This document shows positions 13,109 to 28,924 of a stretch of DNA of 56,404 nucleotides, one piece after another. The notes beneath the pieces were generated by a model. It made no database searches. It worked only from the letters and a program-made list of their open reading frames with translations, and had not been told where the DNA came from. Source of the DNA: Actinomycetes bacterium. GTDB taxonomy: Bacteria > Actinomycetota > CALGFH01. How positions within the stretch are numbered: the first letter of the stretch is position 1; every line of letters begins with the position of its first letter. Where the stretch lies: assembly GCA_045807325.1 (NCBI GenBank), contig JBJMHP010000348.1, forward strand, positions 1 to 56,404, written 5' to 3'. Made by a program: the position numbers and the translations under genes.

Positions 13109-14218
<1,110 letters not shown>

Positions 14219-14267
14219 CACAGTCCCCTCTGAAGTAGGCGGCCCAGGAACGTTCGGAGTGGCGAGC

Positions 14268-14296
14268 ACCGTACTACGAACACCTGTTCGGTACAA
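14268..14296 (-). promoter_or_regulatory. Candidate recA promoter (TTGTAC-N17-TACGGT)
   Basis: The minus strand reads ATCATTGTACcgaacaggtgttcgtagTACGGT, with the SOS box filling the spacer. Confidence 0.5.
14276..14291. promoter_or_regulatory. LexA (SOS) box upstream of recA
   Basis: ACGAACACCTGTTCGG, a perfect CGAAC-N4-GTTCG, about 60 nt upstream of the recA ATG. Confidence 0.8.
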
Positions 14297-14359
14297 TGAT
14301 CATATCCGGATCTGGGGACAATCCCTCGCAGCGGCCGCGTTACCCCTGGCCGTCGTGAT

Positions 14360-14962: not shown

Positions 14963-15007
14963 GCGAGGCCCCGGGATGGGCGTGCTGCTGTCCCAACCCC
15001 GACTGCT

Positions 15008-15070
15008 GGGGCCCCCGAACGGGAGGGTAGCCGACCGGGCCGGGGGGCGGAGGCGGTTGTCCACAGGGGC
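15008..15070 (+). repeat. Dispersed DnaA-box-containing repeat, copy A
   Basis: ggggcccccgaacGGGAGGGTAGCCgaccgggccggggggcggaggcgGTTGTCCACAGgggcc. It fills most of the cinA-thpR intergenic spacer. Confidence 0.75.
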
Positions 15071-15074
15071 CGAC

Positions 15075-16328
15075 TCACGCCAGGCCCTCCAGGCGGCGGC
15101 GGGCCAGGTCGAGGGCGACCGTGGTGGTCCAGAGGCGGATCTGGCTGCGGTCGCCGGGGGCGGTGAGGGTGCGGGTGGCGGTGCCGGCGGCGTCGGCGAC
15201 CCCGAGGCAGAGGGTGCCGACCCGGCGGCCGGACTGCTCGGTGGGGCCGGCGACGCCGGTGGCGGCCACACCGAGGTCGGCGCCGAAGGCCTTGCGGGCG
15301 CCCTCGGCCATGGCGGCGGCGACCGGCTCGCTGACCGGGCCGTCGGCGGCGAGCAGGTCGGGATCGACGCCGAGCCGGGACGCCTTGGCGTCGGTGGCGT
15401 AGGCGACCACGCCGCCAAGGTAGTAGTCGGAGGCGCCGGGGATGCCGGTGATGCGGCCGCCGAGGAGGCCGCCGGTGAGCGACTCGGCGGTGGCCAGGGT
15501 GAGGCCGCGCTCACCCAGCAGGCGGCCGACGACGGCCTCCAGGGTCTCGTCGTCGGTGCCGTAGACGATGTCGCCGAGCTCCTCGCGGACCCTGGCCTCC
15601 ACCGGGGCGATCTCGACCAGGGCCTGCTCCCGGGTGTGGCCGACGGCGGTGAGGCGCACCCGGACCTCCCCCGGGCTGGCCAGGTAGGCCATGGTGACCT
15701 GGCGGCCGGCCCCGACCTCCTCCCACGTCGGGGTGAGGCGCTCGGCCAGGCGTGACTCCCCCACCCCGGCGGTGCGAAGGGTCCGGGAGACGATCGCCCG
15801 GCCCTCCCCGGCCCTGGCCGCCAGGTCGGGCAGGACCACCTGCTCGAGCATGCCCTCCATCTCGCGGGGGACGCCGGGCACGGCGTAGACGGGCTTGCCG
15901 TCGATCTCCATGATCAGCCCGGGGGCGGTCCCCCGCGGGTTGTCGATGGTGCGGGCGCCCTGGGGCACGTCGGCCTGGCGCAGGTTCATCTCGGCCATCC
16001 GCTGGACGCCCATGCCGCCGAACCGCTCCCGCAGCCACGCCTCCAGCTCGGGCTGGCGCACCAGGGCCACACCGGCCACCTCGGCCAGGGCCTCCCGGGT
16101 CACGTCGTCCTGGGTCGGGCCCAGGCCGCCGGTCAGGAGGACCGCGTCGGCCCGGCCGAGAGCCTCGCCGATGGCCTCGGCGATGCGCTCGGTGTTGTCC
16201 CCGACCACGGTGTGGCGCAGGCAGTCCCAGCCGACGTCGGCCAGGCGCTGGCCGATCCAGGCGGCGTTGGTGTTGACGATCTGGCCGAGCAGCAGCTCGG
16301 TCCCGACCCCGATGATCTCGCAGCGCAC
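15075..16328 (-). CDS. cinA: Competence/damage-inducible protein CinA (MoCF-binding + nicotinamide-nucleotide amidase domains)
   Basis: MRCEIIGVGTELLLGQIVNTNAAWIGQRLADVG..LLTGGLGPTQDDVTREA.. and a C-terminal PncC-like TAESLTGGLLG. Confidence 0.9.
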   Translation of the reverse strand: MRCEIIGVGTELLLGQIVNTNAAWIGQRLADVGWDCLRHTVVGDNTERIAEAIGEALGRADAVLLTGGLGPTQDDVTREALAEVAGVALVRQPELEAWLRERFGGMGVQRMAEMNLRQADVPQGARTIDNPRGTAPGLIMEIDGKPVYAVPGVPREMEGMLEQVVLPDLAARAGEGRAIVSRTLRTAGVGESRLAERLTPTWEEVGAGRQVTMAYLASPGEVRVRLTAVGHTREQALVEIAPVEARVREELGDIVYGTDDETLEAVVGRLLGERGLTLATAESLTGGLLGGRITGIPGASDYYLGGVVAYATDAKASRLGVDPDLLAADGPVSEPVAAAMAEGARKAFGADLGVAATGVAGPTEQSGRRVGTLCLGVADAAGTATRTLTAPGDRSQIRLWTTTVALDLARRRLEGLA

Positions 16329-16367
16329 GCCCGCTCCCTTGCCGATGGACCGTCGACGGCGAGGATG

Positions 16368-17738
16368 CTACCCGGCCGGCCGGGCCAGAAGCTCCGGGCC
16401 CTGGGCGGCGGTGACCACCACCGGCAGGTACTCCCCCACCGTGATCCGTGACGCGCCCTCGACCCGGACCACGCCGTCGGCGTCGGGGGCCTCCCGGAAG
16501 CTGCGGCCCTCGACGGCGCCGTCGGCCTCGACCCGCTCGACCAGCACCTCCAGCCGCCGCCCCACCCAGGCCTCCTGGGCCTCGGCCAGGAGGCTATCCT
16601 GCAATCCCTGGGCCCGCTCGACCCGGGCCCTGGCGGTGGCCTCCGGGACGCGGTCGTCAAGCTCCAGGGCGGCGGTTCCGTCCTCGGGCGACCAGGCGAA
16701 GAACGCGACCCAGTCGAGGCGGGCCGCCTCCAGGAACGCCTCCAGCTGGCGCACGTCGGCGGCGCGCTCGCCCGGGAAGCCGAGGATGAAGTTGGAGCGG
16801 AAGGCGGCGTCGGGGTCGAGGGCGCGGATCCGCCCGACCAGGTCGAGGAAGGACCCGGCCGAGCCGCCGCGGCGCATGCGCCGCAGCACGGGGACGCTGG
16901 CGTGCTGCAGCGACAGGTCGAAGTAGCTGCAGACCACCGGGTTGGCCGCCATCTCCTCGAGCAGGCCGGGGGTGACTTCGTCGGGCTGGAGGTAGTTGAG
17001 GCGGACCCGGCGCAGGCCGTCGATCCCGGCCAGGTCGCGTAGCAGGTGGATGAGGGCCTCGCGGCCGCCCAGGTCCTTGCCGTAGCTGGTGGAGTTCTCG
17101 GCGACCAGGCAGACCTCGGAGACGCCCTGGCCGGCCAGCCAGGCGACCTCGTCCAGGATCTCGGTGGGCCGCCGGGAGCGGAACCGGCCCCGGAACGACG
17201 GGATGGCGCAGAACGAGCAGTCGCGGTCGCAGCCCTCGGCCAGCTTGACCAGGGCCACCGGCCCGCGGGCGGACGCCCTGGCCGGGAACGCGGCCCCGGC
17301 CGGGGTCGGGAACACCATCGGCAGGGGCCGCCGTCCAGGTGGGACCAGGGAAGCCGGACCGGGCCCGGCGGCTTCCCGGGAGCCGAGCAGCGACGGGAGC
17401 TTGCCGTAGTCGGAAAACGGGACGATGGCGTCGGCCTCGGGGAGCTCGACCCGCAGCTCCTCGGTGTAGCGTTCGGCCAGGCAGCCGGTGACCAGGACGG
17501 TGCGGGGCCGGCCCTGCTCCTTGAGGGCGGCCGCGTCCAGGATGGTCTCGATCGACTCGCGCTTGGCCGCCTCCACGAACGCGCAGGTGTTGACGACCAC
17601 GGCGTCGGCCTGCTCGGGGTCGGTCACGACCTGGTAGCCGGCGGCGGCGAGCAGGCCGGCGGCGTTCTGGGAGTCGACCTCGTTGCGGCCGCAGCCGAGG
17701 GTGACGATGGCCACGGTCGTCGGGGCGGGGTCGGGCAT
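16368..17738 (-). CDS. rimO: Ribosomal protein S12 methylthiotransferase RimO
   Basis: VAIVTLGCGRNEVDSQNAAGLL..EGCDRDCSFCAIP (radical SAM) and a TRAM C-terminus. Confidence 0.9.
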   Translation of the reverse strand: MPDPAPTTVAIVTLGCGRNEVDSQNAAGLLAAAGYQVVTDPEQADAVVVNTCAFVEAAKRESIETILDAAALKEQGRPRTVLVTGCLAERYTEELRVELPEADAIVPFSDYGKLPSLLGSREAAGPGPASLVPPGRRPLPMVFPTPAGAAFPARASARGPVALVKLAEGCDRDCSFCAIPSFRGRFRSRRPTEILDEVAWLAGQGVSEVCLVAENSTSYGKDLGGREALIHLLRDLAGIDGLRRVRLNYLQPDEVTPGLLEEMAANPVVCSYFDLSLQHASVPVLRRMRRGGSAGSFLDLVGRIRALDPDAAFRSNFILGFPGERAADVRQLEAFLEAARLDWVAFFAWSPEDGTAALELDDRVPEATARARVERAQGLQDSLLAEAQEAWVGRRLEVLVERVEADGAVEGRSFREAPDADGVVRVEGASRITVGEYLPVVVTAAQGPELLARPAG

Positions 17739-17775: not shown

Positions 17776-19011
17776 CTACCAGCCGCCGCGGTCCGACACC
17801 GCGAAGCCGAGCAGGTCGGCGGCGAGCCCGATCACGGTCGTGGTGGTCCGCACGCCGAGCAGCTGCGGCCGGAGCCGGGCCCCGGCGGCCAGGTGGCGAT
17901 CGTACGGCAGACGCGCCACCCGCACCCCCTGGGAGGCAAGGGTCCTGGTCCCGCGCTTGAGGTCGACGGCCTCGGTGTGGGGGCTCTGGCTGGAGAGGAC
18001 GACGACGGTGCGCGGGAGCAGGGAGGCCGAGGTCTGGCGCAGCCGGGCGATGGCCTGGTGGGCGCTGAGCAGGCCGTCGACGGTGGCCGGGGCGACCAGG
18101 GCGAGGGCCTGGGCGTCCTCGAGGACGCCCAGGTTGAGGCGGCTGGCCGGGTCCGGTCCGCAGTCGGTCACCAGCACCGCGAAGAAGCGCGAGAGGGCGG
18201 CCACGGCCGCCCGGTACGCGGGGAGGTCGAGCCGGGGGGCGGGGTCCGCGCTGGTCGGGCCGGTCAGCAGCCACAGGCCGCTGTCGGTCCGGCCCAGGTG
18301 GGGGTCGGCGTCCTCGAAGGCCTGCGGCTGGGGGGCGGCGCGGCCGAAGCCGGCCACCGGGCGGGGCGAGGCCGCCCCGGCCACCAGGGCCAGGGAGCCC
18401 AGCTCGGGGGCGGCGTCGACGGCCAGGACCCGGTCGGGCCGGGCGGCGGCGAGGGCGGTCGCGACCAGCGCCGCCAGCGTGGTCTTGCCGGCGCCGCCCC
18501 GGCCGCTCAGCACGGCGATCCTTCGGATGGTGGTCACCGGCTGACGCAGCCGCTCGGCCCGGGTGGTGGCCTCGCGGACCTCCCGCGAGGCGCCCATGCC
18601 CAGCACCTCCCGCACACGCCGGGCGGCCTGTCTGGCCACCGGGTCCCGGTGGTGCCTGGGCCGGGTGAACTGCTCCGGATCGAGGTCGCCCGGCGCCAGC
18701 CCGCGGCGCCCGTCCTCCTCGGGCCCCGGGACCACGGACCCGGCCCCGGGGTCGGCCCCCTGGAGGGGGAGCGTAGCCGACCCGGGAGTGGGGCGTGCCG
18801 GGTTGTCCACAGCCGGGGCCGCATCGGCTCCCGCGGCCGGGTCGGCGCTCGGGGATGAGTCGGGACCCTGAGCCGCATCGGTGCCCCGGGACGGGGCGGC
18901 ACCCGGGGCTGGATCGGCGCCCGGCGCCGGTTCAGGACCCATCCCCAGGTCGCGGAGGACCGACGAACCCCAGTCCTGCTCGGGGGGGTCTGGTTCTCGC
19001 TCCGGGCGCAT
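17776..19011 (-). CDS. T7SS-associated ParA/MinD-like ATPase (EspI-like architecture): long Pro/Ala/Gly-rich N-terminus plus a deviant Walker A domain
   Basis: RRIAVLSGRGGAGKTTLAALVATALA..VLAVDAAPELG..VLVTDCGPD. The ATG at 19011 overlaps the eccD stop (TGATG). The true start is uncertain because repeat copy C lies in the N-terminal region. Confidence 0.7.
   Translation of the reverse strand: MRPEREPDPPEQDWGSSVLRDLGMGPEPAPGADPAPGAAPSRGTDAAQGPDSSPSADPAAGADAAPAVDNPARPTPGSATLPLQGADPGAGSVVPGPEEDGRRGLAPGDLDPEQFTRPRHHRDPVARQAARRVREVLGMGASREVREATTRAERLRQPVTTIRRIAVLSGRGGAGKTTLAALVATALAAARPDRVLAVDAAPELGSLALVAGAASPRPVAGFGRAAPQPQAFEDADPHLGRTDSGLWLLTGPTSADPAPRLDLPAYRAAVAALSRFFAVLVTDCGPDPASRLNLGVLEDAQALALVAPATVDGLLSAHQAIARLRQTSASLLPRTVVVLSSQSPHTEAVDLKRGTRTLASQGVRVARLPYDRHLAAGARLRPQLLGVRTTTTVIGLAADLLGFAVSDRGGW
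18754..18816 (+). repeat. Dispersed DnaA-box-containing repeat, copy C (more diverged 5' half)
   Basis: ggccccctggaGGGGGAGCGTAGCCgacccgggagtggggcgtgccgGGTTGTCCACAGccgggg. It lies in-frame inside the N-terminal low-complexity part of the ParA-like ORF (..APAVDNPARPTPGSATLPLQG..). Confidence 0.65.
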
Positions 19012-20333
19012 CAGAACGTGTCGAGGAGGCGGCCGTAGATGCCGAACACCCCGATCGCCAGCGGGACGGCGGCGACCACGGCCACCGTCTCCAAGCGGTC
19101 GGCGAGGCGGCGTGACCGGGCTCTGACGTGGTCGACCGGCTCCACGACGAGGGCGACCAGGGTCATGACCAGGAGGGCCAGGACGGCGGCGAGGGGGGCG
19201 GCGGTGCCGGCGCGGTCCTGCCAGACGGACAGCAGTCCCAGCAGGATCCAGGCGGCCGCCGCCAGCAGGGCGACGACCTCGGCGACCAGGGGGTAGATGC
19301 GGGCCCGGCCGGCCAGGACGACGGCGCAGGCGGCGGCCAGCAGGACCGTCCAGCGGGTGGGGGCGGTCAGCAGCTGGCGGCCGGCCAGGGCGGTGGAGGC
19401 GGCGGTGGCGACCACGGCGACCGAGAGGCTGCGGTGGGTCGCCTCGATGGCCGCGACCGCGTCCCGGCGGGCCACCTCGTCGCCGGCCGTGCGGCGGTCG
19501 TCGAGGCTGGTGAGCCCGGAGGCGGTGAGGGCGACCCGTGGCAGCAGCCCCAGCAGGACGACGGAGGCGACGGCCAGCACGGCGGCCAGCCGGTCGGGGG
19601 TGAGGCCGGCCGACAGGCCGGCGCCCCAGGCCGCGGCCAGGCCGAGACCGAGCCCGCCGCCGACCACCCCGACCCGGCCGAGGGGCGAGACCAGGCCGAG
19701 GAGCACGGTGGCGGCGGCGGCCACGGCCGCGGCCACCACCAGCCGTCCCACCAGGGGTTGGCCGGCCGCGCCCGTGGCCGTCCAGGCCGAGACCAGCCCG
19801 ACCGCGCCGCCCCCGAGGACCAGCGCGGTCCCGGGCGGCTCGCGCAGCTGGGCGGCCACCATCCCGCAGGCGGCCAGGGTGAGCGCGACCACGGCCAGCG
19901 CCTGGGCCGTCCGCGGGTCGCTCCAGGGGCCGCGGAGCAGCAGCCAGGCAACGGCCAGGCAGGCGGCGACCACCCCGGCGGTGAGGGTCCAGCGGCGGGC
20001 GGCCGGCCCCCACCGCCAGGGCCGCCGGTCGCGGTCGTCGGACACCTCCTCGATGACGTCGTGGACGACCGGCGCCGGCGGCGCGTCGTGCTGGGCGACC
20101 AGCCGCAGCACGGCCCCGTCCTGGACCTCGGCCTCGGCCAGGGTCGCGTCCAGGGCGAGCACCTGCCCGGCCGCCCCGACCAGCTGCCGGGCCCGCGGCG
20201 GCGCCTGGGCCTCGTCGCCCAGGAGGGCCAGCAGGTCCGGCATGAGCGAGCCGACCGGCTCGGTGGACGGCAGCACCAGGTCGACCCGCCGGCGTTCGCC
20301 GACCAGGGTGACCCGGCTGTAGGGGACGTTCAT
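19011..20333 (-). CDS. eccD: Type VII secretion integral membrane protein EccD
   Basis: YukD/ubiquitin-like N-terminus MNVPYSRVTLVGERRRVDLVLPSTEPVGSLMPDLLALLG..DGAVLRLV, followed by about 11 hydrophobic helices. I chose ATG 20333; the track ORF extension is low complexity. Confidence 0.85.
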   Translation of the reverse strand: MNVPYSRVTLVGERRRVDLVLPSTEPVGSLMPDLLALLGDEAQAPPRARQLVGAAGQVLALDATLAEAEVQDGAVLRLVAQHDAPPAPVVHDVIEEVSDDRDRRPWRWGPAARRWTLTAGVVAACLAVAWLLLRGPWSDPRTAQALAVVALTLAACGMVAAQLREPPGTALVLGGGAVGLVSAWTATGAAGQPLVGRLVVAAAVAAAATVLLGLVSPLGRVGVVGGGLGLGLAAAWGAGLSAGLTPDRLAAVLAVASVVLLGLLPRVALTASGLTSLDDRRTAGDEVARRDAVAAIEATHRSLSVAVVATAASTALAGRQLLTAPTRWTVLLAAACAVVLAGRARIYPLVAEVVALLAAAAWILLGLLSVWQDRAGTAAPLAAVLALLVMTLVALVVEPVDHVRARSRRLADRLETVAVVAAVPLAIGVFGIYGRLLDTF

Positions 20334-20349
20334 GGCCGCGCCACCGAGC

Positions 20350-20622
20350 TCACCGCCCCGTCCCGGGTGCCGGGGCGACGGCCCGGGGCACCGCCCTGGC
20401 CGCGGCCTGCTGGTCGAGCTGGTGCTGGAGGAACGACCAGCCGACGCAGCCGGCACACAGCACGGCGGCGAGCACGGCCCCGCCGGCGGCCCGGCGCAGG
20501 TTGTTGTTGCTGGCCTTACGGCGGGCCCGCAGTGAGCCGTGGAGCAGCGCGTCCGCCAGCCGCTGGCGGCGGACCGCCACCGACTCCAGCAGCTGGGCGT
20601 CGTAGTCTCGCTCCATGGGCAT
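20350..20622 (-). CDS. Small single-pass membrane protein, unknown function (T7SS locus)
   Basis: MPMERDYDAQLLESVAVRRQRLADALL.. followed by a TM segment AAGGAVLAAVLCAGCVGWSFL. It is tightly packed between the immunity-like ORF and eccD. Confidence 0.55.
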   Translation of the reverse strand: MPMERDYDAQLLESVAVRRQRLADALLHGSLRARRKASNNNLRRAAGGAVLAAVLCAGCVGWSFLQHQLDQQAAARAVPRAVAPAPGTGR

Positions 20623-20645
20623 CGCCCCCGAGGGGAAGGTCGGCG

Positions 20646-20963
20646 CTACTCGTAGACGTCGTGGAGCCGCATCTCGATGGTGGCCAGGACCTCGGCGAAC
20701 TCGAGGTCGCGGTCGTCGCCGCTGGGCGTGCGCAGCAGCTCCAGGCGCAGCTCGTCGGCGATCCTGGCCAGCCGCTCGGCCAGCCGGACCGCCTGGTCGC
20801 GGTCGAGCAGGTCGAAGTGGAGGCCGTCCAGGGCGATGGCCTGCCGGACGGCGTAGTTGTCGGCCTCGTCATCGGTGGCGGCGGCCAGCCGCTCCAGCAG
20901 CGTCCGGTAGGCCCACCTGGACAGCGTGGTCGGCTCGTTGTTGGGGATGACGATGACGGCCAC
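20646..20963 (-). CDS. Candidate immunity protein (105 aa, acidic) for the upstream toxin candidate
   Basis: GTG 20963 directly follows the toxin stop codon (TGA-GTG, zero gap). The protein is small, acidic and non-secreted-looking (..ATDDEADNYAVRQAIALDGLHFDLLDRDQ..DDRDLEFAEVLATIEMRLHDVYE). The call rests on context. Confidence 0.55.
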   Translation of the reverse strand: MAVIVIPNNEPTTLSRWAYRTLLERLAAATDDEADNYAVRQAIALDGLHFDLLDRDQAVRLAERLARIADELRLELLRTPSGDDRDLEFAEVLATIEMRLHDVYE

Positions 20964-22469
20964 TCAGAACCCGATCCGCACGATCTTGTCCTGCTCGGTC
21001 GCGGGCAGGCCGTCGAGGTGGCGGCGGACGGCGGCGATCTGGTCGGGCGTGAAGCCGGTCAGGTCGACCACGGTGTAGTCGTTCGACTTCAGCAGGTGCT
21101 GGTCGATCGAGCGCAGGAACACCCGCTCGTTCCAGTACCGGGACGCCTCGGGGGTGCCGACGGCGTCATAGGACCGGCCCAGGTCGTCGACGTACTCGGC
21201 GCCGACATGCGGGCTCTCGTGGAAGGTGCGGTCGGCGAAGTCCGGCTGGGCCTTGAGCCGGGCCGCGGTCGCCTGCTCGGCCGGGCTGAGCCGGGTGGCG
21301 TCGGGGATGCCCTCGGCCCGCAGCCGGTCCAGGTCGGCCACGGCGTCGCCGGCCCCGCCGGCGGCGTGGTCCAGGCCGCCGGTCTGGAGGTCGGGGGTGC
21401 TCTGGTCGAGCTGGGTGGTGAGCTCGTCGACGGTCGGCAGGTCGGGGTCGAGCTTGCCGGCATCCTCGAGCTGGTCGGCGAGCTTGCCGACGTCGTCGGG
21501 CAGCTTGCCGGCGTCCTCGGCGGCGTCGGCGACCTCGTCGACCTTCCCGGCCTTGTTGAACTTGCTCACCTTGGCGATCTTCAGGGCCTTCAGCGCCGCC
21601 AGCGGCAGGGTGACCACGTTCCACAGCACCGTGCCGAAGGCGCGGGCCGGGTCCTGGCTCCACATGTCCCAGGCCACCAGCGCCTTGCCCAGGTTCTTCC
21701 AGGCCTCCAGGGCCTCGCCGGGGGCGTACAGCCACTTGCCGGTCAGGCTCCACAGCCCGCCCCAGGACGAGCTGAAGGTGTCCCAGTCGAACGGGTTGAC
21801 GAAGCCGACCAGGCCCTTGAGGTCGTCCCAGACTCCGTCGACGAAGAAGCCCTTGACCACCGAGACGCCGCCGTTCCAGACGTCCTTCCACCAGGGCTCG
21901 TCCTTCTCCTCGGGGGCGCCCCACGGCCGCTCGGCGTTGGCCGGGATCTCGGTCGGGCCGTAGGTGTCGGGGCCGCTGCCGCCGGCGTGCCACTGGCGCC
22001 CCCCGAAGCGGGCGTTGATGGCGTTGGCGGCCCGCCGCTCGGCGTCCTGGAGGGCCAGCACCTGCTGGTCGACGGCGGCCAGGAGGCCGTTGTGCTGGTC
22101 GACCTTGGCGCCGTCCTCGCGCCAGTCGTCGTCGCCCTGCACGCTGGCCACGAACGACGACGCCTCGGCCTGGAGCTGCTCCAGGCGCTGGGCGATGGGA
22201 CGGACCTCGGCCGCGTAGCCGCTGAGGGTGCCGGCCACGCCCTCCAGGTCGCCGCCGAGGTCGCTGGCCCGGCTGCGGACCGGCTCGGTGGCCGCGAACA
22301 GCTGGGCCGCCTCCGGGGCCTCGTAGAAGGCGGACAGGCCCTGCCAGGTCGAGTGGACGTCGCTGCCGGCCTCGCGGACGCCCTGGCCGGCCGTGCGCAG
22401 GCTGGACGCGTCGACCTCGAGGACGTCGACGTCGCCTCGGAACTGGGGGATGGCGCCCGGGTTGATCAT
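20964..22469 (-). CDS. Putative T7SS-secreted polymorphic toxin with an N-terminal WXG100/LXG-like domain, a Trp-rich central region, an acidic repeat linker and a variable C-terminal domain
   Basis: The N-terminal roughly 110 aa are helical and carry W-x-G (HSTWQGLSAFYEAPEA). The centre reads PWWKDVWNGG..WDTFSSSWGGLWSLTGKW..AWDMW. The linker is a DAGKL-type repeat. The C-terminal roughly 130 aa I could not assign to any family. It lies between the WXG100 genes and an immunity-like ORF. Confidence 0.65.
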   Translation of the reverse strand: MINPGAIPQFRGDVDVLEVDASSLRTAGQGVREAGSDVHSTWQGLSAFYEAPEAAQLFAATEPVRSRASDLGGDLEGVAGTLSGYAAEVRPIAQRLEQLQAEASSFVASVQGDDDWREDGAKVDQHNGLLAAVDQQVLALQDAERRAANAINARFGGRQWHAGGSGPDTYGPTEIPANAERPWGAPEEKDEPWWKDVWNGGVSVVKGFFVDGVWDDLKGLVGFVNPFDWDTFSSSWGGLWSLTGKWLYAPGEALEAWKNLGKALVAWDMWSQDPARAFGTVLWNVVTLPLAALKALKIAKVSKFNKAGKVDEVADAAEDAGKLPDDVGKLADQLEDAGKLDPDLPTVDELTTQLDQSTPDLQTGGLDHAAGGAGDAVADLDRLRAEGIPDATRLSPAEQATAARLKAQPDFADRTFHESPHVGAEYVDDLGRSYDAVGTPEASRYWNERVFLRSIDQHLLKSNDYTVVDLTGFTPDQIAAVRRHLDGLPATEQDKIVRIGF

Positions 22470-22481
22470 GGCCGTCCCCGC

Positions 22482-22787
22482 CTACCTGCCGGCGTTGCGC
22501 TGGGCGTGCTCGGCCATGGCCAGGTCGCCGTTCAGGTACGCCCTGGTGGCGTCCACCGCCCCCTCCAGCACCCGGGAGGTCCGGTCGACCAGGAACTGGA
22601 AGGCCGGCTGGTTGTGGGCGGCGAAGTCGACCAGCGCCTGGCCGACGATCTGGCTGCCGCTGGCCGCGACCGCACCCTGGACGGCGGCCTCGTAGGCCTT
22701 GCCGTGGCGCTCGAACGCCCTGGCCTGCTCGACCGTCCGGGACACCACGCTGCGGACCCCGGCCGGGTCAATGTCCCACCTGCCCAT
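22482..22787 (-). CDS. Small helical T7SS accessory protein (WXG100-like fold candidate; chaperone or partner of the toxin)
   Basis: MGRWDIDPAGVRSVVSRTVEQARAFERHGKAYEAAV.. The ATG overlaps the stop of the upstream WXG100 gene (ATGA). From memory it resembles small DUF proteins found upstream of 'putative T7SS-secreted protein' genes in Streptomyces; this is unverified. Confidence 0.55.
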   Translation of the reverse strand: MGRWDIDPAGVRSVVSRTVEQARAFERHGKAYEAAVQGAVAASGSQIVGQALVDFAAHNQPAFQFLVDRTSRVLEGAVDATRAYLNGDLAMAEHAQRNAGR

Positions 22788-23095
22788 CAGCCGATGGCGT
22801 CGACCGCACTCCTGGCCTGGGCCAGGGTGCTCTGGGCGGTGCCGTCGTTCTGCTCGAGGGTGCCGCGGACCAGGGCGATGATCGAGCGGACCTCGGTGGC
22901 GGCGCTGTTCCAGCGGCGCTCCTTGCCGTGGTACTGGTCGGACACGCCGTCGGCCTGGAAGTCGGACATGGCCTGCTTCACGTCGGCGTCCCGCTGGCCG
23001 ATCAGCGCCTCCAGGCGGGCGATGACGGTCTGGAGATTTCCCTGGGCCTCCTGGGAGGCGCCAACGTCGTAGCTGCGTCGGTCGGCGTTCGCCAT
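22787..23095 (-). CDS. WXG100 family type VII secretion target (EsxB-like)
   Basis: 102 aa, helix-turn-helix composition, ..AMSDFQADGVSDQYHGKERRWNSAATEV.. It is paired with a second roughly 100-aa gene next to eccC. Confidence 0.75.
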   Translation of the reverse strand: MANADRRSYDVGASQEAQGNLQTVIARLEALIGQRDADVKQAMSDFQADGVSDQYHGKERRWNSAATEVRSIIALVRGTLEQNDGTAQSTLAQARSAVDAIG

Positions 23096-23110
23096 GGCTC
23101 CTCCTCTCGC

Positions 23111-23446
23111 TCAGCCGCGGGTGCCGAAGCGGGCGGCGTCGAAGTTGGCCGCCCCCAGCCCGGTCTTGGAGTTGTCGGCCATCTCGGTCTCGCCCTGGAT
23201 GAAGGCGGTGTCCATGCCGTGGACCCCGCCGAGGATGGCCGACAGGGACGAGTTCAGGTCGGCCGTGATCTCGTCGGAGCGGGCCTTGAACGAGTCGAAG
23301 GCGGCCTTGCCGGCCCCGTTGAACCTGCCCTCCAGCGGCTGGGCGGCCGCGATCAGCTGCTTGATGAGCGCACCCAGGTCGCCGCTGGCCCCCTGGGTCT
23401 GCCTGGTCAGCGTCGACAGCGTCTGGCTGCCCACGTCGAATCTCAC
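23111..23446 (-). CDS. WXG100 family type VII secretion target (EsxA-like)
   Basis: 111 aa from GTG 23446 with GAGAGGAGAG upstream. ..AAQPLEGRFNGAGKAAFDSFKARSDEI.. carries F-N-G in place of W-x-G. Confidence 0.75.
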   Translation of the reverse strand: MRFDVGSQTLSTLTRQTQGASGDLGALIKQLIAAAQPLEGRFNGAGKAAFDSFKARSDEITADLNSSLSAILGGVHGMDTAFIQGETEMADNSKTGLGAANFDAARFGTRG

Positions 23447-23491
23447 CGGGCTCTCCTCTCGCCGATGCGGGTTCTGGCGGAACGGCGGCAT

Positions 23492-23497
23492 ATCATA
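23492..23497 (-). promoter_or_regulatory. Candidate -10 (TATGAT) for the esx operon
   Basis: It is the only AT-rich patch in the esxA<>eccC divergent spacer and lies 45 nt upstream of GTG 23446. Confidence 0.3.
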
Positions 23498-23568
23498 AGC
23501 GACCTCCCCCGACAGGAAGCAATCGCCGCGAACGTGACATCTCCCCCCTACAGCTTCGGGCCGGGCCG

Positions 23569-26500
23569 TTGAGGCGGCTGGTGCACCGGCCGGCGCGGGT
23601 GGTCCGCCCGGCCGGCCAGGCCGGGCCGCTCGGGATCGAGGCCCCGCCGACCCTGCCCGAGGGCCGGTCCAGCAACCCGGTGCAGGCGCTGCTCCCGGTG
23701 GCCGGGGCGACCTCGTCGCTCGGCATGATGCTGGTCTTCCGCAACCCGGCCATGCTGGCCGTGGGAGCCCTGATCATGCTCGTGACGGTGTTCGGCGGGC
23801 TGGCCATGCTGCTGTCCCAGAGCGGCCAGGCGGCCCGCCAGCGCCGCCAGCAGCGCGACCGCTACCTCGAGTACCTGGAGGAGCTGCGCCAGCGGTCGGC
23901 GGCCGAGGAGCACCAGGAGCGGGCCGCGGCCACGGCCCTCGACCCGCCACCCGCGGCCCTGTTCGACGTCGTCCGCGACCCGGCCAGGCGCTGGGAGCGG
24001 CGCCGCGCCGACCCCGACTTCCTCCGGGTCAGGGTCGGGATGGGCCCGGTTCCGGCCCGGCCCCTGGTGCTGGCCGACGGCGGCAGCTCGCTGCGGCCCA
24101 CCGACCCGTTCATGCTCGCCGAGGCCCGGGCGGTGGAGCGGCGCTTCGCCACCACCCCGCAGATGCCGCTGACCGTGCCCCTGGACCGGGCCGGGAACGT
24201 GAGCGTTGTCGGCGACCGGGCCGAGGCGCTGGGGCTGGCCAGGGCCCTGCTGGTGCAGGCGGCGGCCTGGCACGCCCCCGACGACCTGGCGGTGGCGCTG
24301 GCCTGCCCGCCCGGGTGGCTGGACGACTGGTCGTGGGCCAAGTGGCTGCCGCACCTGCTCGACCCCGAACGCCGCCACGGCCAGACCGAGGGCCGCCGGG
24401 TCGCGCCCTCGCTCGGCGAGCTGGCCCGGGCGATGGCCGGGGACCTGTCGGCCAGGGCGACCTACGCCGCCGAGGCCCGGCGGGGCATGGCCGCCGGCCA
24501 GGCCCTGGCCCTGGCCCGCCGGCTGCTGGTCGTCCACGACGCCCACGGCCAGGTGGCCGACGAGCTGCCCTCCCCCGACCAGGCGGTCCCGGCCAGGGAC
24601 ATGGGCGTCACCGTCCTCCATCTGGTCGCCGACCGGCTGCACGAGCCCGAGGAGGTGGCCGTCCGGGTCACCCTGGAGGACGGGCAGGTGGCGGTCGAGG
24701 ACCTCCGCGGCCCCGGCCCGCCGCCGGCGGTGGCCGGCGTGGCCGACCAGGTCCCGACCGCCCTGGCCGAGGGGCTGGCCCGCATCCTGGCCCCGCTGCG
24801 GCTCTCGGCCTCCTCGGCCGTCGAGGACAACCCGCACGCCGGCCCGGTGAGCCTGCCGGACATGCTCGGCGTCGACGACCCGGCCGACCTCGACCTGGCA
24901 GCCCTGTGGGCGCCGCGCGGCGAGCGCGACGTCCTCCGGGTGCCGATCGGGGTGACCGACGCCGGGGAGCCGCTGCTGCTCGACCTCAAGGAGCCGGCCC
25001 AGCTGGGCATGGGCCCCCACGGCCTGTGTGTCGGGGCCACCGGCTCGGGCAAGAGCGAGCTGCTGCGCACCCTGGTCCTGGCCCTGGCCGCCACCCATCC
25101 CCCCGAGCGGCTGGGGATGGTGCTGATCGACTACAAGGGCGGGGCGACCTTCGCCCCCTTCGCCGCCCTCCCCCACGTGGCCGGGGTCATCACCAACCTG
25201 GCCGACGACGCCGGGCTGGTCGAGCGGGTCCACGCCAGCCTGGCCGGGGAGGTGCAGCGCCGCCAGCAGGCGCTGAAGGATGCCGGCAACCTGGCCCACA
25301 TCGCCGACTACGCGCAGCTGCGGGAGCGCGACCCGGAGCTGGCTCCCCTGCCCCACCTGCTGGTGATCATCGACGAGTTCGGCGAGCTGCTCACGGCCAA
25401 GCCGGAGTTCATCGAGCTGTTCCTGACCATCGGCCGCATCGGCCGCAGCATCGGCGTCCACCTGCTGCTGTCCAGCCAGCGCATCGAGGGCGGCAAGCTC
25501 AAGGGCCTCGACACCTACCTGTCGTACCGGCTGGGGCTGCGCACCTTCTCGGCCGCCGAGAGCCAGGTCACCCTGGACACCGCCGACGCCTTCCACCTGC
25601 CACCCCTGCCCGGCTTCGGCTACCTCAAGGTCGGGACCGTCACCTACGACCGGTTCAAGGCCGCCTACGTCTCCGGGCCCGTGCGGCCGCTCTCGGCGGC
25701 CGAGCAGGCCCCACCGGGCGCCCGGCCGGCCCCGTTCACCACCGCCAACCGCGGCGCCGACGACGGCGAGGACGGCCAGGCGGAGGAGACCGCCGTCCCG
25801 GCCCGGAGCGCCGAGCCGGGGCTCCACCAGGTCGTGGTGGCCCAGCTCCAGGGGGCGGCCGCCCCGGTGCACCGGGTCTGGCTGCCGCCGCTGCCGGCGG
25901 CGGTCGCCCTGGACGTGGCCGCCGGCGGGGTCGAGGTCGGCGACCGGGGGCTCCAGCTGGCCGGCCGGGCCGGCCCCATGCGGGTGCCGCTGGGGCTGCT
26001 GGACGACCCGGCCGCCCAGCGGCAGGGGCGGTGGCTGCTGGACCTGCGCACCGGGGGCGGCCACGTGGCCGTGATCGGCGGCCCCCAGTCGGGCAAGACG
26101 ACGCTGCTGCGCACCCTGGTCGCCGCCCTGGCCCTGACCCACACCCCCCGGGAGGTGGCCGTCTACGGGGTCGACCTGGTCGGCGGCGGGCTCCTCCCCC
26201 TGGCCGGGTTCCCGCAGGTCGGCGGGGTCACCGGCCGGTCCGACCGCGAGCGGGTGCGGCGGACCCTCGAGGAGGTCAGGGGCATGCTGGAGCACCGCGA
26301 GGAGGTGTTCCGGGATCGCGGCATCGACTCGGTGGAGAGCCTGCGTCGCCGCCACGCCGCCGGGGAGGTCCCGGAGCTGCCCATGGCCGAGGTGGTGCTG
26401 GTGGTCGACGGCCTCGGGCTGGTCCGCTCCGAGCACGAGGAACTGGAGCCGCTGGTCGCCGACCTGCTCCAGCGCGGCGGCGGCTACGGCATCCACCTGG

Positions 26501-27555
26501 TCGGGTCGCTGCTGCGCTGGAACGACCTGCGCATCGCCCTCCAGCCGGCCTTCGGCACCCGCTTGGAGCTGCGGCTGAACGACCCCGCCGACTCGGTGGT
26601 GGACCGGCGGCTGGCCGCGACCCTGCGCGACGACCAGCCGGGCCGGGTGCTGACCGACGCCAGGCTGTTCGCCCAGACGGCCCTGCCCCGGATCGACGGG
26701 GTGGCCGACGCCGCCGCCCTCGGCGACGTGGTCGGCCAGCTGGGCCGGGCGGCCCGCTCGGCCTGGCCGGGCGAGCCGGCGCCGAGGGTCCGGGTGCTGC
26801 CGGCCCGCCTGGGCGCCGACACCCTCCCCGGCCCGCGGGAGGCGCCCCGGCGGGTCCCGGTCGGGGTGGACGAGACCACCCTGCGGCCGCTGTTCCTCGA
26901 CCTGTTCGACGCCGACCAGCACCTGCTGGTGCTCGGCGACGGCGCGTGCGGCAAGACCAACCTGCTGCGGCTGGTCGCGGCCGGGCTGGCCGCCCGCCAC
27001 GGGGAGGAGGAGCTGGTGTTCGCCGTCATGGACCCGCGCCGGGGCCTGCGCGACGCCGTGCCCGAGGGCCTGCTCGGCGGGTATGCCGGCAACGGCAAGG
27101 TCTGCGGCGGCCTGGCCGCCGGGATCGCCAGGGAGCTCGACAAGCGCATGCCCGAGGAGGTCGCCGATCAGCAGGCCCTGGCCGACGGGGCCTGGTTCTC
27201 CGGGCCGCGGATCGTGGTCCTGGTCGACGACTACGACATGCTGACCGCGGCCGGGCAGCAGCCGTTGGCCCCGTTCCTGCCCTATGTGCCGTCGGCCCGC
27301 GACATCGGGCTCCACTTCGTGGTCGCCCGCCGGGTCGCCGGCGCCTCCCGGGCCCTCTACGACCCGTTCCTCCAGGCGCTACGGGAGAGCGGCACCAGCG
27401 GGCTGGTCATGGCCGGCGACCGGGGCGAGGGCCAGCTGTTCCCCGGCGTGTACGCCGGCGCCCAGCCGGCCGGCCGCGGCTGGTGGGTCCGGCGCGGCGA
27501 ACCGGTCCGCCTGGTCCAGACGGCCGTCGCCGAGGGCGTCCAGGCCCTGCTGTGA
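23569..27555 (+). CDS. eccC: Type VII secretion protein EccC (FtsK/SpoIIIE-family, three ATPase domains)
   Basis: The N-terminus RRLVHRPARVV..GPLGIEAPPTLPEG is followed by 2 TM helices. Walker A motifs are GATGSGKSELLRT, GGPQSGKTTLLRT and GDGACGKTNLL. The TTG 23569 start fits the length of EccC N-termini; GTG 23581 (GAGG upstream) is an alternative. Confidence 0.93.
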   Translation: MRRLVHRPARVVRPAGQAGPLGIEAPPTLPEGRSSNPVQALLPVAGATSSLGMMLVFRNPAMLAVGALIMLVTVFGGLAMLLSQSGQAARQRRQQRDRYLEYLEELRQRSAAEEHQERAAATALDPPPAALFDVVRDPARRWERRRADPDFLRVRVGMGPVPARPLVLADGGSSLRPTDPFMLAEARAVERRFATTPQMPLTVPLDRAGNVSVVGDRAEALGLARALLVQAAAWHAPDDLAVALACPPGWLDDWSWAKWLPHLLDPERRHGQTEGRRVAPSLGELARAMAGDLSARATYAAEARRGMAAGQALALARRLLVVHDAHGQVADELPSPDQAVPARDMGVTVLHLVADRLHEPEEVAVRVTLEDGQVAVEDLRGPGPPPAVAGVADQVPTALAEGLARILAPLRLSASSAVEDNPHAGPVSLPDMLGVDDPADLDLAALWAPRGERDVLRVPIGVTDAGEPLLLDLKEPAQLGMGPHGLCVGATGSGKSELLRTLVLALAATHPPERLGMVLIDYKGGATFAPFAALPHVAGVITNLADDAGLVERVHASLAGEVQRRQQALKDAGNLAHIADYAQLRERDPELAPLPHLLVIIDEFGELLTAKPEFIELFLTIGRIGRSIGVHLLLSSQRIEGGKLKGLDTYLSYRLGLRTFSAAESQVTLDTADAFHLPPLPGFGYLKVGTVTYDRFKAAYVSGPVRPLSAAEQAPPGARPAPFTTANRGADDGEDGQAEETAVPARSAEPGLHQVVVAQLQGAAAPVHRVWLPPLPAAVALDVAAGGVEVGDRGLQLAGRAGPMRVPLGLLDDPAAQRQGRWLLDLRTGGGHVAVIGGPQSGKTTLLRTLVAALALTHTPREVAVYGVDLVGGGLLPLAGFPQVGGVTGRSDRERVRRTLEEVRGMLEHREEVFRDRGIDSVESLRRRHAAGEVPELPMAEVVLVVDGLGLVRSEHEELEPLVADLLQRGGGYGIHLVGSLLRWNDLRIALQPAFGTRLELRLNDPADSVVDRRLAATLRDDQPGRVLTDARLFAQTALPRIDGVADAAALGDVVGQLGRAARSAWPGEPAPRVRVLPARLGADTLPGPREAPRRVPVGVDETTLRPLFLDLFDADQHLLVLGDGACGKTNLLRLVAAGLAARHGEEELVFAVMDPRRGLRDAVPEGLLGGYAGNGKVCGGLAAGIARELDKRMPEEVADQQALADGAWFSGPRIVVLVDDYDMLTAAGQQPLAPFLPYVPSARDIGLHFVVARRVAGASRALYDPFLQALRESGTSGLVMAGDRGEGQLFPGVYAGAQPAGRGWWVRRGEPVRLVQTAVAEGVQALL

Positions 27556-27920
27556 CCAGGGACGTGGTCGCCCTGCTGCCGACGGCGCCGGAGGTGGCCG
27601 ACGTGGCCGCCGCCCTGCGGGCGGCGGGCGAGCGGTTCGGGGTCCGCCCGGCCGCCGAGGGATCGGTGGTGCAGCTCTGCGACGACCAGGGGCGGCCGCT
27701 GGTCTCGATCGAGGTGCCGGTGCTGGTCCGGGTCCCCGGCGAGGTCGAGCGGCTGCTCGGGGCCGAGGTGGCCGGCCGGCTGCCCCCGCCGCCGCTGTGG
27801 TGGGTGGAGACCAGGGCCCCCAGCGCCCGCGAGGGCGCCGAACGGCTGGGCCGCCGCTTCGCCGAGGCCCTGGCCGCCCGCTGCGGCGGGATCGTCTGGC
27901 CTGCGGAGGGTCGCCGGTGA
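27552..27920 (+). CDS. Hypothetical protein (122 aa), translationally coupled to eccC
   Basis: The GTG overlaps the eccC stop (GTGA). The translation is coding-like: VTRDVVALLPTAPEVADVAAALRAAGERFGVRPAAEGSVVQLCDDQGRPLVSIEVPVLVRVPGEVERLLG..WWVETRAP.. It is hidden in the tail of a long alternative-frame track ORF. Confidence 0.55.
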   Translation: MTRDVVALLPTAPEVADVAAALRAAGERFGVRPAAEGSVVQLCDDQGRPLVSIEVPVLVRVPGEVERLLGAEVAGRLPPPPLWWVETRAPSAREGAERLGRRFAEALAARCGGIVWPAEGRR

Positions 27921-28924
27921 CCGCGGTCGCGGCCGGCCACCCGGCGGTCGACGTGCTCACCGACCGGGTCGCGGTGGTGCTCCAGGAGCGCCCGGTGGTG
28001 CCGCTGACCGCCTGGCTGGCCGACGCCGCCCGGACCTGCGCCGAGGCCGGCCGGGGCCTCCAGGTCGTGACCCCGCCGTCGGCCCGGCTGACCACGCCGC
28101 TGCGGTTCGCCCTCGACGGCCCCGACACCCGCTGGGTGGTCCGCGACCGGGGCGGCGGCACCTGCTACGACGGGCTGAGCGGCCGGCTGCTGCACTGGGA
28201 CGGCGCCGCCTTCGTCCCGACCCCGGCCGACGGGCCCGGCGGCCGGGCCCTGGCCCCGGAGTTCGCCGAGGCCGCCCCGCCGGCCGGCTGGCAGCTGGTC
28301 CTGGACGTCCGCGTGCGCCACCCGGCCACGGCCACCGCCCGCCTGGCCGGGGCCGTGGAGGCGCTGTGCGTGGCCCTCACCGGCGAGCCCCCGCGCGGCT
28401 GGGGCACGGCCGAGCCGGCCACCGAGCCCTGGGACCCCGGCCGCCTGACCGCCCTGGCCCGCCGGCGCGCCCCCGACCCGACCCTGCTGGTGGTGGTCGG
28501 CGGCACCGACCGCCAGGCGGTCGGCACCCTGCGGGTGACCCGGGCCGCCTCCGGGGTCGACGAGACCCTGACCCTGGTCGTCGGCCACCCCGACCAGGTG
28601 CCGGTGGACACCCTCCCGGAGGCGGCCGAGGCCGCCGCCGAGCGGGTCGCCCTGGTCTCGATGCTGGCCCAGCTCCGCCCGGGCCGGGCCGACACCACCT
28701 GGGAGCCGCGCCTCCGCGGCCTGCCCGTCCCGGTCGGCATGGCCGTCGGCCCCGAGGAGGTCGCCCGCCTCGGCCTCGACCACGCCCTGTCCGCCCCGGC
28801 ACCGGCGGCACGCCCCCTCGGCCACGACCGGCACCCGGCCGTCTGGTTCCACCTCGGCGACCCCACCACCCCGACCGGCTGGGAGCACCTCACCGCCGTC
28901 CTGCGGCACTTCGGCCCGGAGTAG
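27917..28924 (+). CDS. Hypothetical protein (335 aa), translationally coupled to the previous ORF
   Basis: The GTG overlaps the upstream stop (GTGA). Translation: ..VVLQERPVVPLTAWLADAARTCAEAGRGLQVVTPPSARLTTPLRFALDG..CYDGLSGRLLHWDGAAFVP.. No TM segments and no family recognised. Confidence 0.55.
   Translation: MTAVAAGHPAVDVLTDRVAVVLQERPVVPLTAWLADAARTCAEAGRGLQVVTPPSARLTTPLRFALDGPDTRWVVRDRGGGTCYDGLSGRLLHWDGAAFVPTPADGPGGRALAPEFAEAAPPAGWQLVLDVRVRHPATATARLAGAVEALCVALTGEPPRGWGTAEPATEPWDPGRLTALARRRAPDPTLLVVVGGTDRQAVGTLRVTRAASGVDETLTLVVGHPDQVPVDTLPEAAEAAAERVALVSMLAQLRPGRADTTWEPRLRGLPVPVGMAVGPEEVARLGLDHALSAPAPAARPLGHDRHPAVWFHLGDPTTPTGWEHLTAVLRHFGPE

Follow-up and report, generated by a model that had tools for sequence, protein, structure and literature searches.

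Genes of the cassette and modular build of the toxin

The window examined here is a 56,404-nucleotide (nt) stretch of actinomycete DNA (contig JBJMHP010000348.1, assembly GCA_045807325.1), and between positions 20,646 and 22,787 it carries three adjacent minus-strand open-reading frames (ORFs) that probably form a polymorphic toxin–immunity cassette within a type VII secretion system (T7SS, esx-type) locus. The central ORF (20964..22469) encodes the putative toxin of 501 amino acids (aa), the ORF behind it (20646..20963) starts with GTG and encodes an acidic protein of 105 aa (isoelectric point (pI) 4.5) that is the candidate cognate immunity protein, and the ORF in front (22482..22787) encodes a 101-aa protein that is a candidate export partner. 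Because the sequence under study is 69-79% GC, long ORFs occur in many frames, and some are spurious, such as a plus-strand ORF of 1314 aa (19128-23072) that spans the cassette region. Judged by their homologues, the three minus-strand ORFs are real genes and not chance products of high GC: the 501-aa protein has 131 homologues at E ≤ 1e-3, with E-values down to 3e-283, the 105-aa protein has 39 (best E 2e-58, 99% identity), and the 101-aa protein belongs to the Pfam family DUF6507 (PF20117, E 5.8e-32). The original prediction, made from the letters alone, had named these three ORFs and the zero-gap junction at which the TGA of the toxin gene abuts the GTG of the 105-aa ORF, and both were borne out. 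The ATGA coupling that it saw between the 101-aa ORF and the toxin gene proved to be a 12-nt spacer containing GGGGA, and the overlap lies one gene further upstream, where a 1-nt overlap (TGATG) couples an ESAT-6-like gene (22787-23095) to DUF6507. The exact 501-aa protein is otherwise on record in one 4-kb read-assembly contig only, the host lineage being uncultured, and no second copy of the toxin, its C-terminal domain (CT) or the immunity gene was found within the window.

Comparison with homologues showed the predicted toxin to be built of a conserved delivery region of ~375 aa and an exchangeable CT of ~119 aa, joined at an acidic disordered linker. When BLASTP matches were mapped onto the query, homology to the N-terminal part ended at residues 287-386 (366-386 for the closest relatives, ~75% identical), CT-only homologues began at residues 370-393 with a few shorter fragments beginning later, and the two halves occurred together in P0001-P0004 only, four near-identical proteins (85-93%). 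When their last 170 residues were compared, 109 actinomycete members of the N-terminal family gave 28 unrelated CT clusters, among which were the Pfam domains YwqJ deaminase, CdiA_C, ADP-ribosyltransferase, EndoU, RelA/SpoT and nucleotidyltransferase; the closest N-terminal relatives (P0005-P0022, ~76% identical) bear RelA/SpoT CTs. Variation of the CT between homologues had been fixed beforehand as a point on which the toxin reading could fail, and a conserved front followed by variable CTs is one of the traits by which polymorphic toxins are recognised (Zhang et al. 2012).

Comparison across loci likewise showed that genes for the CT and the 105-aa protein are inherited and exchanged as one unit. 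Outside esx clusters (L002-L005), a toxin fronted by PF21725 (T7SS_signal) carries a CT that is 71% identical to that of the window and is followed, with zero gap, by a 72%-identical homologue of the 105-aa protein, and in a Demequinaceae locus a third kind of N-terminus carries a 67%-identical CT followed by a homologue with 50% identity. A hidden Markov model (HMM) of the 105-aa family, run on 22 CT loci from several phyla, matched 13 ORFs (E 1e-44 to 8e-4), all of which start within a few nt of the CT stop or, in one case, overlap the 3′ end of the toxin gene. Among the remaining ORFs of 50 aa or more in the 22 loci, none scored even at E < 10, and the nine loci without a match have an ORF of 86-161 aa in the immunity slot.

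Joint replacement was seen in two metagenomic sister esx loci (L011 and L012), in which identity to the window genes is 83-84% for EccC, 88-95% for a 111-aa WXG gene, 86-92% for the ESAT-6-like gene, 70-75% for DUF6507, 75-79% for toxin residues 1-370, 75-87% for a 90-aa membrane protein and 75% for EccD. The CT and the 105-aa ORF have both been replaced there amid flanks that are 70-95% identical, and neither locus yields a match to either of them. Over 13 pairs, the pairwise identities of CT and small ORF are correlated (Mantel r = 0.85, p ≤ 2e-4), the small ORF diverging faster. The toxin–immunity layout that had been proposed from gene order was thus found behind other N-termini too, the 105-aa ORF co-varied with the CT, and by this comparison the ORF behaves as a cognate immunity candidate. 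Those refuting conditions of the original prediction that lie within reach of computation all came out in its favour. Two points weigh against reading more into the pair. Neighbouring genes share ancestry, and the Mantel correlation therefore speaks for co-inheritance rather than binding; and the profile of the 105-aa family, which has no Pfam, NCBIfam or PDB relative, retrieved no 5J4A chain at E ≤ 10, i.e., no sequence likeness to CdiI E479, the immunity protein of the toxin to which the CT is compared below.

Side by side with these pairs, two further arrangements were observed. In L011 (8244-9121) the toxin CT is of RelA/SpoT type and is followed, in the immunity slot, by a 95-aa ORF and a 197-aa HD_4 (PF13328) hydrolase-type gene, the latter plausibly an enzymatic antidote that would degrade the alarmone and not bind the toxin. 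In L006 (6001-7006) an orphan immunity copy, 70% identical and with no toxin upstream, stands beside two SMI1_KNR4 immunity-type gene fragments, in what looks like an immunity-gene island.

The same CT also ends proteins with quite different fronts. An exhaustive search with the CT profile returned 744 cluster representatives at E ≤ 1e-3 (429 at ≤ 1e-10), and in nearly all of the 150 matches listed the CT lies at the extreme C-terminus of carriers of ~100 to 3417 aa, RHS-repeat proteins and one eCIS-core protein among them. A scan of species-representative genomes found it in Actinomycetota, Bacteroidota, Planctomycetota, Acidobacteriota and Myxococcota. In Streptomyces sp. HPF1205 (L031:1866-4686), a 506-aa protein fronted by WXG100_2 (PF25547), the third unrelated T7SS-type front, carries the same CT, with a WXG100/EspC-like ORF before the toxin gene and an immunity homologue after it. 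In Amycolatopsis bartoniae DSM 45807 (NZ_CP174150.1, L022:689-4706), the CT terminates a 1230-aa protein with eight ALF repeats, again followed by an immunity homologue (HMM E 9e-17). We take ALF repeats to be characteristic of UmbC umbrella toxins, and on that ground the same CT would ride on umbrella-type particles in this strain. One cassette spread over several delivery systems, orphan immunity genes, and a downstream immunity gene that changes with the CT are further traits of polymorphic toxins. Separately, a 370-aa protein on a 2.3-kb JGI contig (P0046) joins a MerR-type helix-turn-helix domain to an 88%-identical copy of the CT; the fusion may be genuine, or a chimera produced by assembly or gene calling.

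Predicted fold and active site of the C-terminal domain

The CT (residues 383-501; 20967..21323, minus strand) is predicted to be a PD-(D/E)XK nuclease domain resembling that of CdiA-CT E479, a Mg-dependent tRNase of the PD-(D/E)XK family that cleaves tRNA in its T-loop (PMC9086364). An AlphaFold2 (AF2) model of the CT alone, built on 21 sequences, had a predicted local distance difference test score (pLDDT) of 91 and a predicted template-modelling (TM) score of 0.83, and was a mixed α/β fold of four to five strands in the order α, three β strands, α, β, α, β (helices 22-32 and 66-86, and strands 42-44, 52-54, 59-63 and 91-95 onward, in the numbering of the CT model). A Foldseek search of the PDB with this model gave a single significant match, 5j4a_A (E 5.6e-5, probability 1.0), with TM scores of 0.69/0.74, a root-mean-square deviation of 2.2 Å over 119 columns and 18% identity. 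A profile of 18 mutually divergent CTs had the same chain as its top PDB match (5J4A_A, E 7.9e-4), aligned over nearly the whole domain. The CT had at first been regarded as unassignable to any toxin family, with HHpred or Foldseek on an AlphaFold model proposed as the check, and it was Foldseek that led to 5J4A and the E479-like fold. Sequence searches of the PDB with single sequences or close profiles of the toxin, the CT and the immunity protein found no relative, and P0039, a PF18451 (CdiA_C) protein tried as a bridge to a solved structure, gave no match.

The published active site of E479 consists of E204, D229, D243, H275 and D285, with His275 replacing the canonical Lys (PMC9086364). 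In the profile alignment, the E, D, D and H of the 5J4A chain are spaced by 25, 14 and 32 residues, exactly as in the published numbering, and E204/D229/D243/H275 are paired with E398/E425/D435/H458 of the toxin and position 285 with D469. Across 165 CTs these five positions are 98-100% conserved, residue 425 being always E or D and H458 being retained in 98%, and D428, K461 and R404 are near-invariant as well. From this alignment and conservation, E398, E425, D435, H458 (with K461) and D469 are the predicted catalytic residues. The deposited 5J4A chain A has Ala at position 285 (H275+10; chain index 130), presumably an inactivating substitution in the crystallised toxin.

On sequence and model, the CT is a distant relative of CdiA-CT E479 that probably works like it; we write distant relative, and not member of the Pfam family PF18664 (CdiA_C_tRNase), because the CT fails the threshold of that family. 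Several findings weigh against a close functional parallel. The window CT gives no match to PF18664, whose cut-off is 26.5 bits; P0133, the best member of the CT family, scores 22.8 bits, and L031 scores 20.6 bits. The equivalent of D229 is Glu425 in the window toxin, and D428 and K461 lie outside the published E479 list, extra residues with which the chemistry or the substrate may differ from those of E479. The CT also has an acidic pI of 5.3, unusual in an enzyme that acts on nucleic acids, and PD-(D/E)XK toxins include DNases (PMC9086364).

These points favour an alternative that keeps the architecture but makes the warhead a DNase, or an RNase directed at another target, instead of an E479-like T-loop tRNase. 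The PD-(D/E)XK group of CdiA-CTs indeed includes both Zn-dependent DNases (TA271 and YPIII) and tRNases that differ in cleavage site (PMC9086364), and the low identity to 5J4A leaves room for such divergence. Even so, 5J4A was the sole significant structural match and no DNase-type CdiA-CT appeared in the Foldseek top 50, the canonical Lys is replaced by His at the very position where E479 has its unusual His, and several CT members give sub-threshold PF18664 matches that are weak, collinear and cover the C-terminal half of the Pfam model only. We therefore consider a DNase or a differently directed RNase unlikely, and keep an E479-like tRNase as the preferred prediction for the warhead.

Delivery region, export partner and secretion locus

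The delivery region (residues 1-382) has three parts. Residues 1-190 (21900..22469, minus strand) form a predicted WXG100/PPE-like helical export domain, modelled by AF2 with pLDDT > 90 as three long helices (14-45, 62-110 and 120-155), and the first of these ends in the motif W42-Q43-G44 (22338..22346, minus strand). Of 102 family members, 69 have W and 33 have F at position 42; all 102 retain Q43, and 87 retain G44. The top Foldseek matches of this domain in the PDB were EsxA hairpins (probability 1.0, target TM 0.73-0.84), and PPE proteins were matched over ~150 columns (probability 0.9-0.98). Residues 191-300 (21570..21899, minus strand) are rich in Trp (10.9%) and Gly, and their best 19-residue hydropathy (1.52, around 281-299) corresponds to a single borderline-hydrophobic helix. 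The AF2 confidence is low for this middle region, the full-length model being confident over residues 1-190, and the residues W183, G184, A266, D268, W270 and A277 are invariant across the N-terminal family; a role in membrane or envelope interaction, or in target-cell entry, is our guess. Residues 301-382 (21324..21569, minus strand) are an acidic, disordered linker (pI 4.05; pLDDT < 50 over much of its length) with AGKL at residues 320 and 337, and it is this linker that contains the recombination junction. The W-x-G of HSTWQGLSAFY, the unusually Trp-rich centre and the acidic DAGKL-type linker that the original prediction had described are therefore all present. Its WXG100/LXG-like front held in part: the helical bundle is confidently modelled and carries the WQG, while the curated LXG and WXG100 models miss it.

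That miss is one of several results that weigh against the assignment of the front. No Pfam or NCBIfam model matches the whole 501-aa toxin, its N-terminus matches no Pfam or NCBIfam family at E ≤ 0.1 (the LXG, PF06013 WXG100 and PF21725 models included), and no Pfam model at E ≤ 0.01 was found for the shared N-terminal region in any of 66 family members. The N-terminal profile matched the PDB through low-complexity linker only, and the Foldseek E-values of the N-terminal domain are 0.2 or worse, for which reason the structural match is supportive and not decisive. An annotation matter was noted in the same family: several Streptomyces members (e.g., P0060, P0065 and P0093) are named 'protein phosphatase' in NCBI records, which looks like a propagated annotation error; their CT is an ADP-ribosyltransferase or unassigned.

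DUF6507 lies immediately upstream of the toxin gene in L008-L012 and L035, loci that include Micromonospora, Streptomyces and Couchioplanes, and it preceded the toxin in each of six loci compared, in keeping with the chaperone or partner role first suggested for the 101-aa ORF. Near its C-terminus the protein has an invariant A-Y-x-x-G-D-L-x-M-A, in which Y84, G87, D88, L89, M91 and A92 are unchanged from the window lineage to Streptomyces, and the segment Y84-L-N-G-D88 (22524..22538, minus strand) is a YxxxD/E export-arm motif that is invariant in six loci. The Lap1 proteins of LXG toxins carry an analogous FxxxD motif (PMC10801868). A literature search found no papers that mention DUF6507. 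By analogy, DUF6507 is probably a PE/Lap-like export partner of the toxin that supplies the export signal. Because [W/F]QG lies on the toxin and an invariant YxxxD on the protein encoded upstream, as in PE-PPE and Lap pairs, we infer a PE-PPE-like or Lap-LXG-like heterodimer of toxin and DUF6507 that would present a composite export signal. Of the features expected of a T7SS substrate, the toxin has a helical bundle with a WxG-type turn, a partner with YxxxD and an EccC-type translocase encoded alongside; agreement with the curated LXG, PF06013 and PF21725 sequence models is the feature it does not have.

The genes around the cassette are those of an esx locus, as had been proposed. Upstream of DUF6507 on the minus strand lie the gene of the 102-aa ESAT-6-like WXG100 protein (22787..23095; NCBIfam NF035935 ESAT6_3, E 2.5e-46), whose orthologues in L008-L012 contain PF28026, and that of a second WXG100-like protein (23111..23446; weak WXG100 match, E 1e-3). 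The latter is listed as a 126-aa ORF reaching 23491, and its true start is probably the 16th codon (GTG), giving 111 aa, since the orthologues in L011, L012 and L035 have this length and align from residue 16 (the L011 copy being 95% identical). Downstream of the 105-aa ORF, also on the minus strand, is a conserved 90-aa membrane protein (20350..20622; hydropathy peak 1.88) with 64-87% identical copies in L009-L012 and a weak, sub-threshold match to the N-terminus of EccB; it is a component of the secretion locus and lies outside the toxin cassette. It is followed by EccD (19011..20333; TIGR03920, E 1.2e-38), with YukD ubiquitin-like and EccD membrane domains (PF08817 and PF19053), and by a CbiA/MinD/ParA-like ATPase (17776..18900; PF01656, E 2e-11); a Pro/Arg/Gly-rich stretch may lengthen the ORF of the ATPase upstream as far as 20013. 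In L008-L010, too, EccD and/or EccC have a CbiA-type gene call nearby.

The order in one direction is thus WXG100-like, ESAT-6-like, DUF6507, toxin, 105-aa ORF, 90-aa membrane protein, EccD and CbiA/MinD-like ATPase. Transcribed divergently from this operon, on the plus strand, are the 1328-aa translocase ATPase EccC (23569..27555), 84% identical to an L011 gene with two FtsK_SpoIIIE domains, and a 122-aa ORF with a DUF6177 protein (27552..28924; PF19674, E 3e-120). L008 and L012 have this pair next to EccC, as L011 probably does, the partner gene there being truncated by the contig end and lacking a Pfam call. The order WXG, ESAT-6-like, DUF6507 and toxin, with EccD, the CbiA-type ATPase and EccC nearby, is kept in Micromonospora, Streptomyces and Couchioplanes. 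Counting against a complete T7SS, no match to EccB, EccE or MycP at or above the curated cut-off was obtained among the cluster ORFs scanned; an EspG-type chaperone was not seen in the locus either. The reduced gene set of the secretion cluster (17776-28924) recurs in the same three genera, and EccC, EccD, the CbiA/MinD ATPase and DUF6177 may together mark a distinct T7SS subtype. Elsewhere in the window, a second FtsK/SpoIIIE-type ATPase (31639-32583, minus strand), 28% identical to part of EccC, is probably a housekeeping FtsK, because recA, cinA-like and miaB/rimO-like genes lie nearby at 13109-17738.

Proposed mode of action and relation to known systems

Taken together, these results make it probable that the region is a polymorphic toxin–immunity cassette in the effector operon of an actinomycete esx-type locus, with a nuclease as its warhead. 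In the producing cell, the acidic 105-aa protein would bind the CT and block its active site, and DUF6507 would pack on the WXG/PPE-like helices of the toxin, bringing its YxxxD beside the [W/F]QG turn. The two motifs would then form the bipartite signal recognised by EccC-type translocases, as in PE-PPE, EsxAB and LXG-Lap complexes, and the complex would leave through the EccC/EccD machine, aided by the two small WXG100 proteins encoded upstream. The Trp-rich middle region may help the toxin to reach or cross the envelope of the target cell. Inside a neighbouring cell without the immunity gene, the CT would act as a metal-dependent PD-(D/E)XK nuclease, most probably as a T-loop tRNase like CdiA-CT E479, and translation would stop. 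Toxicity of the CT, its neutralisation, its substrate and the dependence of export on the T7SS are predictions from sequence, structural models and gene context, which weighs against the scheme.

The effector could be exported by the T7SS and yet serve ends other than the killing of bacteria, such as kin recognition, developmental death in the mycelium, or an attack on eukaryotic or phage targets. Actinomycete T7SSs are linked to development as well as to virulence, and the host of the window is uncultured. A review of July 2026 lists antibacterial T7SS toxins for Bacillota only (PMC13460014). An obligatory immunity gene that co-varies with the CT, however, implies a target inside the producer's own cytoplasm, the CT cassette is found in antibacterial contexts (Rhs and ALF-repeat umbrella-type proteins), and polymorphism of the cassette between close relatives is a signature of between-strain conflict, all of which makes a non-killing role improbable. 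Still harder to sustain is an intracellular toxin–antitoxin or addiction module that merely happens to be located in an esx operon, its toxin not being exported. Tight coupling of toxin and antidote genes and a small, acidic immunity protein resembling many antitoxins would suit such a module, and export is here a prediction. A toxin of this kind would have no use for a conserved WXG/PPE-like front of ~375 aa, though, and the module would not explain why DUF6507 with its YxxxD and the Esx genes always precede the toxin beside EccC/EccD, why the same CT terminates Rhs, eCIS, ALF-repeat and other T7SS-fronted proteins, or why an orphan immunity gene lies among SMI1_KNR4 genes, as is typical of polymorphic toxin systems; we regard it as very improbable. 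A HEPN-type RNase, for which RSIDQH had been offered as an Rx4H motif and which is favoured by the fit of this motif to Rx4-6H in the window sequence and by the conservation of its His (H458), can be excluded for practical purposes, because the Arg at residue 453 is found in 44 of 165 CTs (27%; otherwise D, A or others) and the model is a mixed α/β fold and not an all-helical bundle, its sole significant structural match being a PD-(D/E)XK toxin to whose catalytic His275 this His corresponds.

Like CdiA-CT/CdiI E479 of Burkholderia pseudomallei (5J4A, PF18664), the cassette combines a C-terminal warhead of PD-(D/E)XK-type fold with a small downstream immunity gene, and all five aligned active-site positions are acidic or His, the unusual His for Lys included. 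It differs from E479 in its low sequence identity and sub-cut-off Pfam score, in Glu for D229 and the extra D428 and K461, in an immunity protein without sequence similarity to CdiI E479, and in delivery, E479 being carried by the CdiB/CdiA two-partner system and the window toxin having a T7SS-type front and a Gram-positive host.

With respect to delivery, the nearest parallels are T7SS substrates. The LXG-Lap systems, characterised in Bacillota (PMC10801868, PMC9600955) and exemplified by the T7SSb set TelA-LapA3-LapA4 (PMC10801868), share with the window a helical WXG-like front with a turn motif, an exchangeable C-terminal toxin, a small helical partner with an acidic export motif encoded upstream, and an immunity gene directly downstream. 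They differ in that the LXG Pfam model misses the window toxin, which has one partner of another family (DUF6507) with a canonical YxxxD where Lap proteins have FxxxD or NKxxDD, a conserved Trp-rich middle domain and an EccC/EccD (T7SSa-type) machine. Residues 1-155 of the toxin superpose on mycobacterial PPE proteins (~150 columns) and EsxA hairpins, and in the PE-PPE arrangement, too, one chain carries WxG and the other, of ~100 aa, has YxxxD/E close to its C-terminus (export arm, PMC10801868); unlike the window toxin, PE/PPE and Esx proteins have no enzymatic toxin domain and no immunity gene, and there is no sequence-level relationship. The exported alarmone synthetase of Amycolatopsis azurea (AaEAS, PMC12691689), likened here by description only, likewise combines a WXG/LXG-type front with a targeting-factor gene upstream and a small immunity ORF downstream, its warhead being a (p)ppGpp synthetase where a nuclease is predicted here; the RelA/SpoT CTs of the closest N-terminal relatives of the window toxin (P0005-P0022) are of the AaEAS type. 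The PF21725-fronted actinomycete toxins share the CT–immunity cassette itself, and in their fronts, too, a WxG turn and an AL..YA.E helix motif are found, with a hydrophobic stretch between these and the toxin. Their genes are not part of esx clusters and have a weak DUF6317 gene nearby in place of DUF6507, and the fronts are not detectably homologous to that of the window (hhalign probability 13%).

How new the cassette is depends on the level at which it is viewed. The original prediction of an uncharacterised effector–immunity pair stands insofar as the cassette is real and its families are unannotated, and has to be qualified in that the kind has been known since 2012, when T7SS polymorphic toxins with WXG, LXG or LDXD fronts were catalogued computationally in Firmicutes and Actinobacteria (Zhang et al. 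2012; PMC3482391). The kind of weapon being known already, the novelty is specific rather than categorical. None of the curated models searched covers the front, the warhead family or the immunity family, DUF6507 gains a concrete functional prediction, and the warhead family is now tied, by profile and model, to the fold of the E479 tRNase with its active-site positions kept. Antibacterial T7SS toxins are well established experimentally in Bacillota only, and the evidence for actinomycetes is mostly computational (PMC3482391), with one toxin domain tested: in 2025 the C-terminal domain of an Amycolatopsis 'LXG'-fronted RelA/SpoT toxin was reported to be toxic in E. coli (PMC12691689).

Against this background, at least 744 sequence clusters of the warhead, from several phyla, become traceable to a solved tRNase toxin, and naming four families (front, warhead, immunity protein and DUF6507) would improve many Streptomyces and Micromonospora annotations. 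The delivery system occurs in the cultured strains Micromonospora sp. WMMD961 (GCA_029626145.1, L008), Streptomyces sp. JH14 (GCA_029428675.1, L009) and Couchioplanes azureus (GCA_042646925.1, L010), and the warhead in A. bartoniae DSM 45807 and Streptomyces sp. HPF1205, which makes the predictions directly testable, and the cassette offers a clean handle on T7SS-mediated antagonism among actinomycetes. We also raise, as a tentative proposal that falls a little short of an even call, that DUF6507 and the un-modelled front of ~300 aa are the actinomycete, EccC/EccD-type counterpart of Lap-LXG, a PE-PPE-like heterodimer that would load exchangeable antibacterial warheads onto a reduced T7SS, by which we mean EccC, EccD, the MinD-like ATPase and DUF6177 in a cluster where EccB, EccE and MycP are not recognisable. 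If this is true, the Trp-rich middle region would constitute a novel target-cell entry module, and the widespread esx-type locus of soil actinomycetes (Streptomyces, Micromonospora, Couchioplanes and uncultured lineages) would serve chiefly as a weapon between bacteria.

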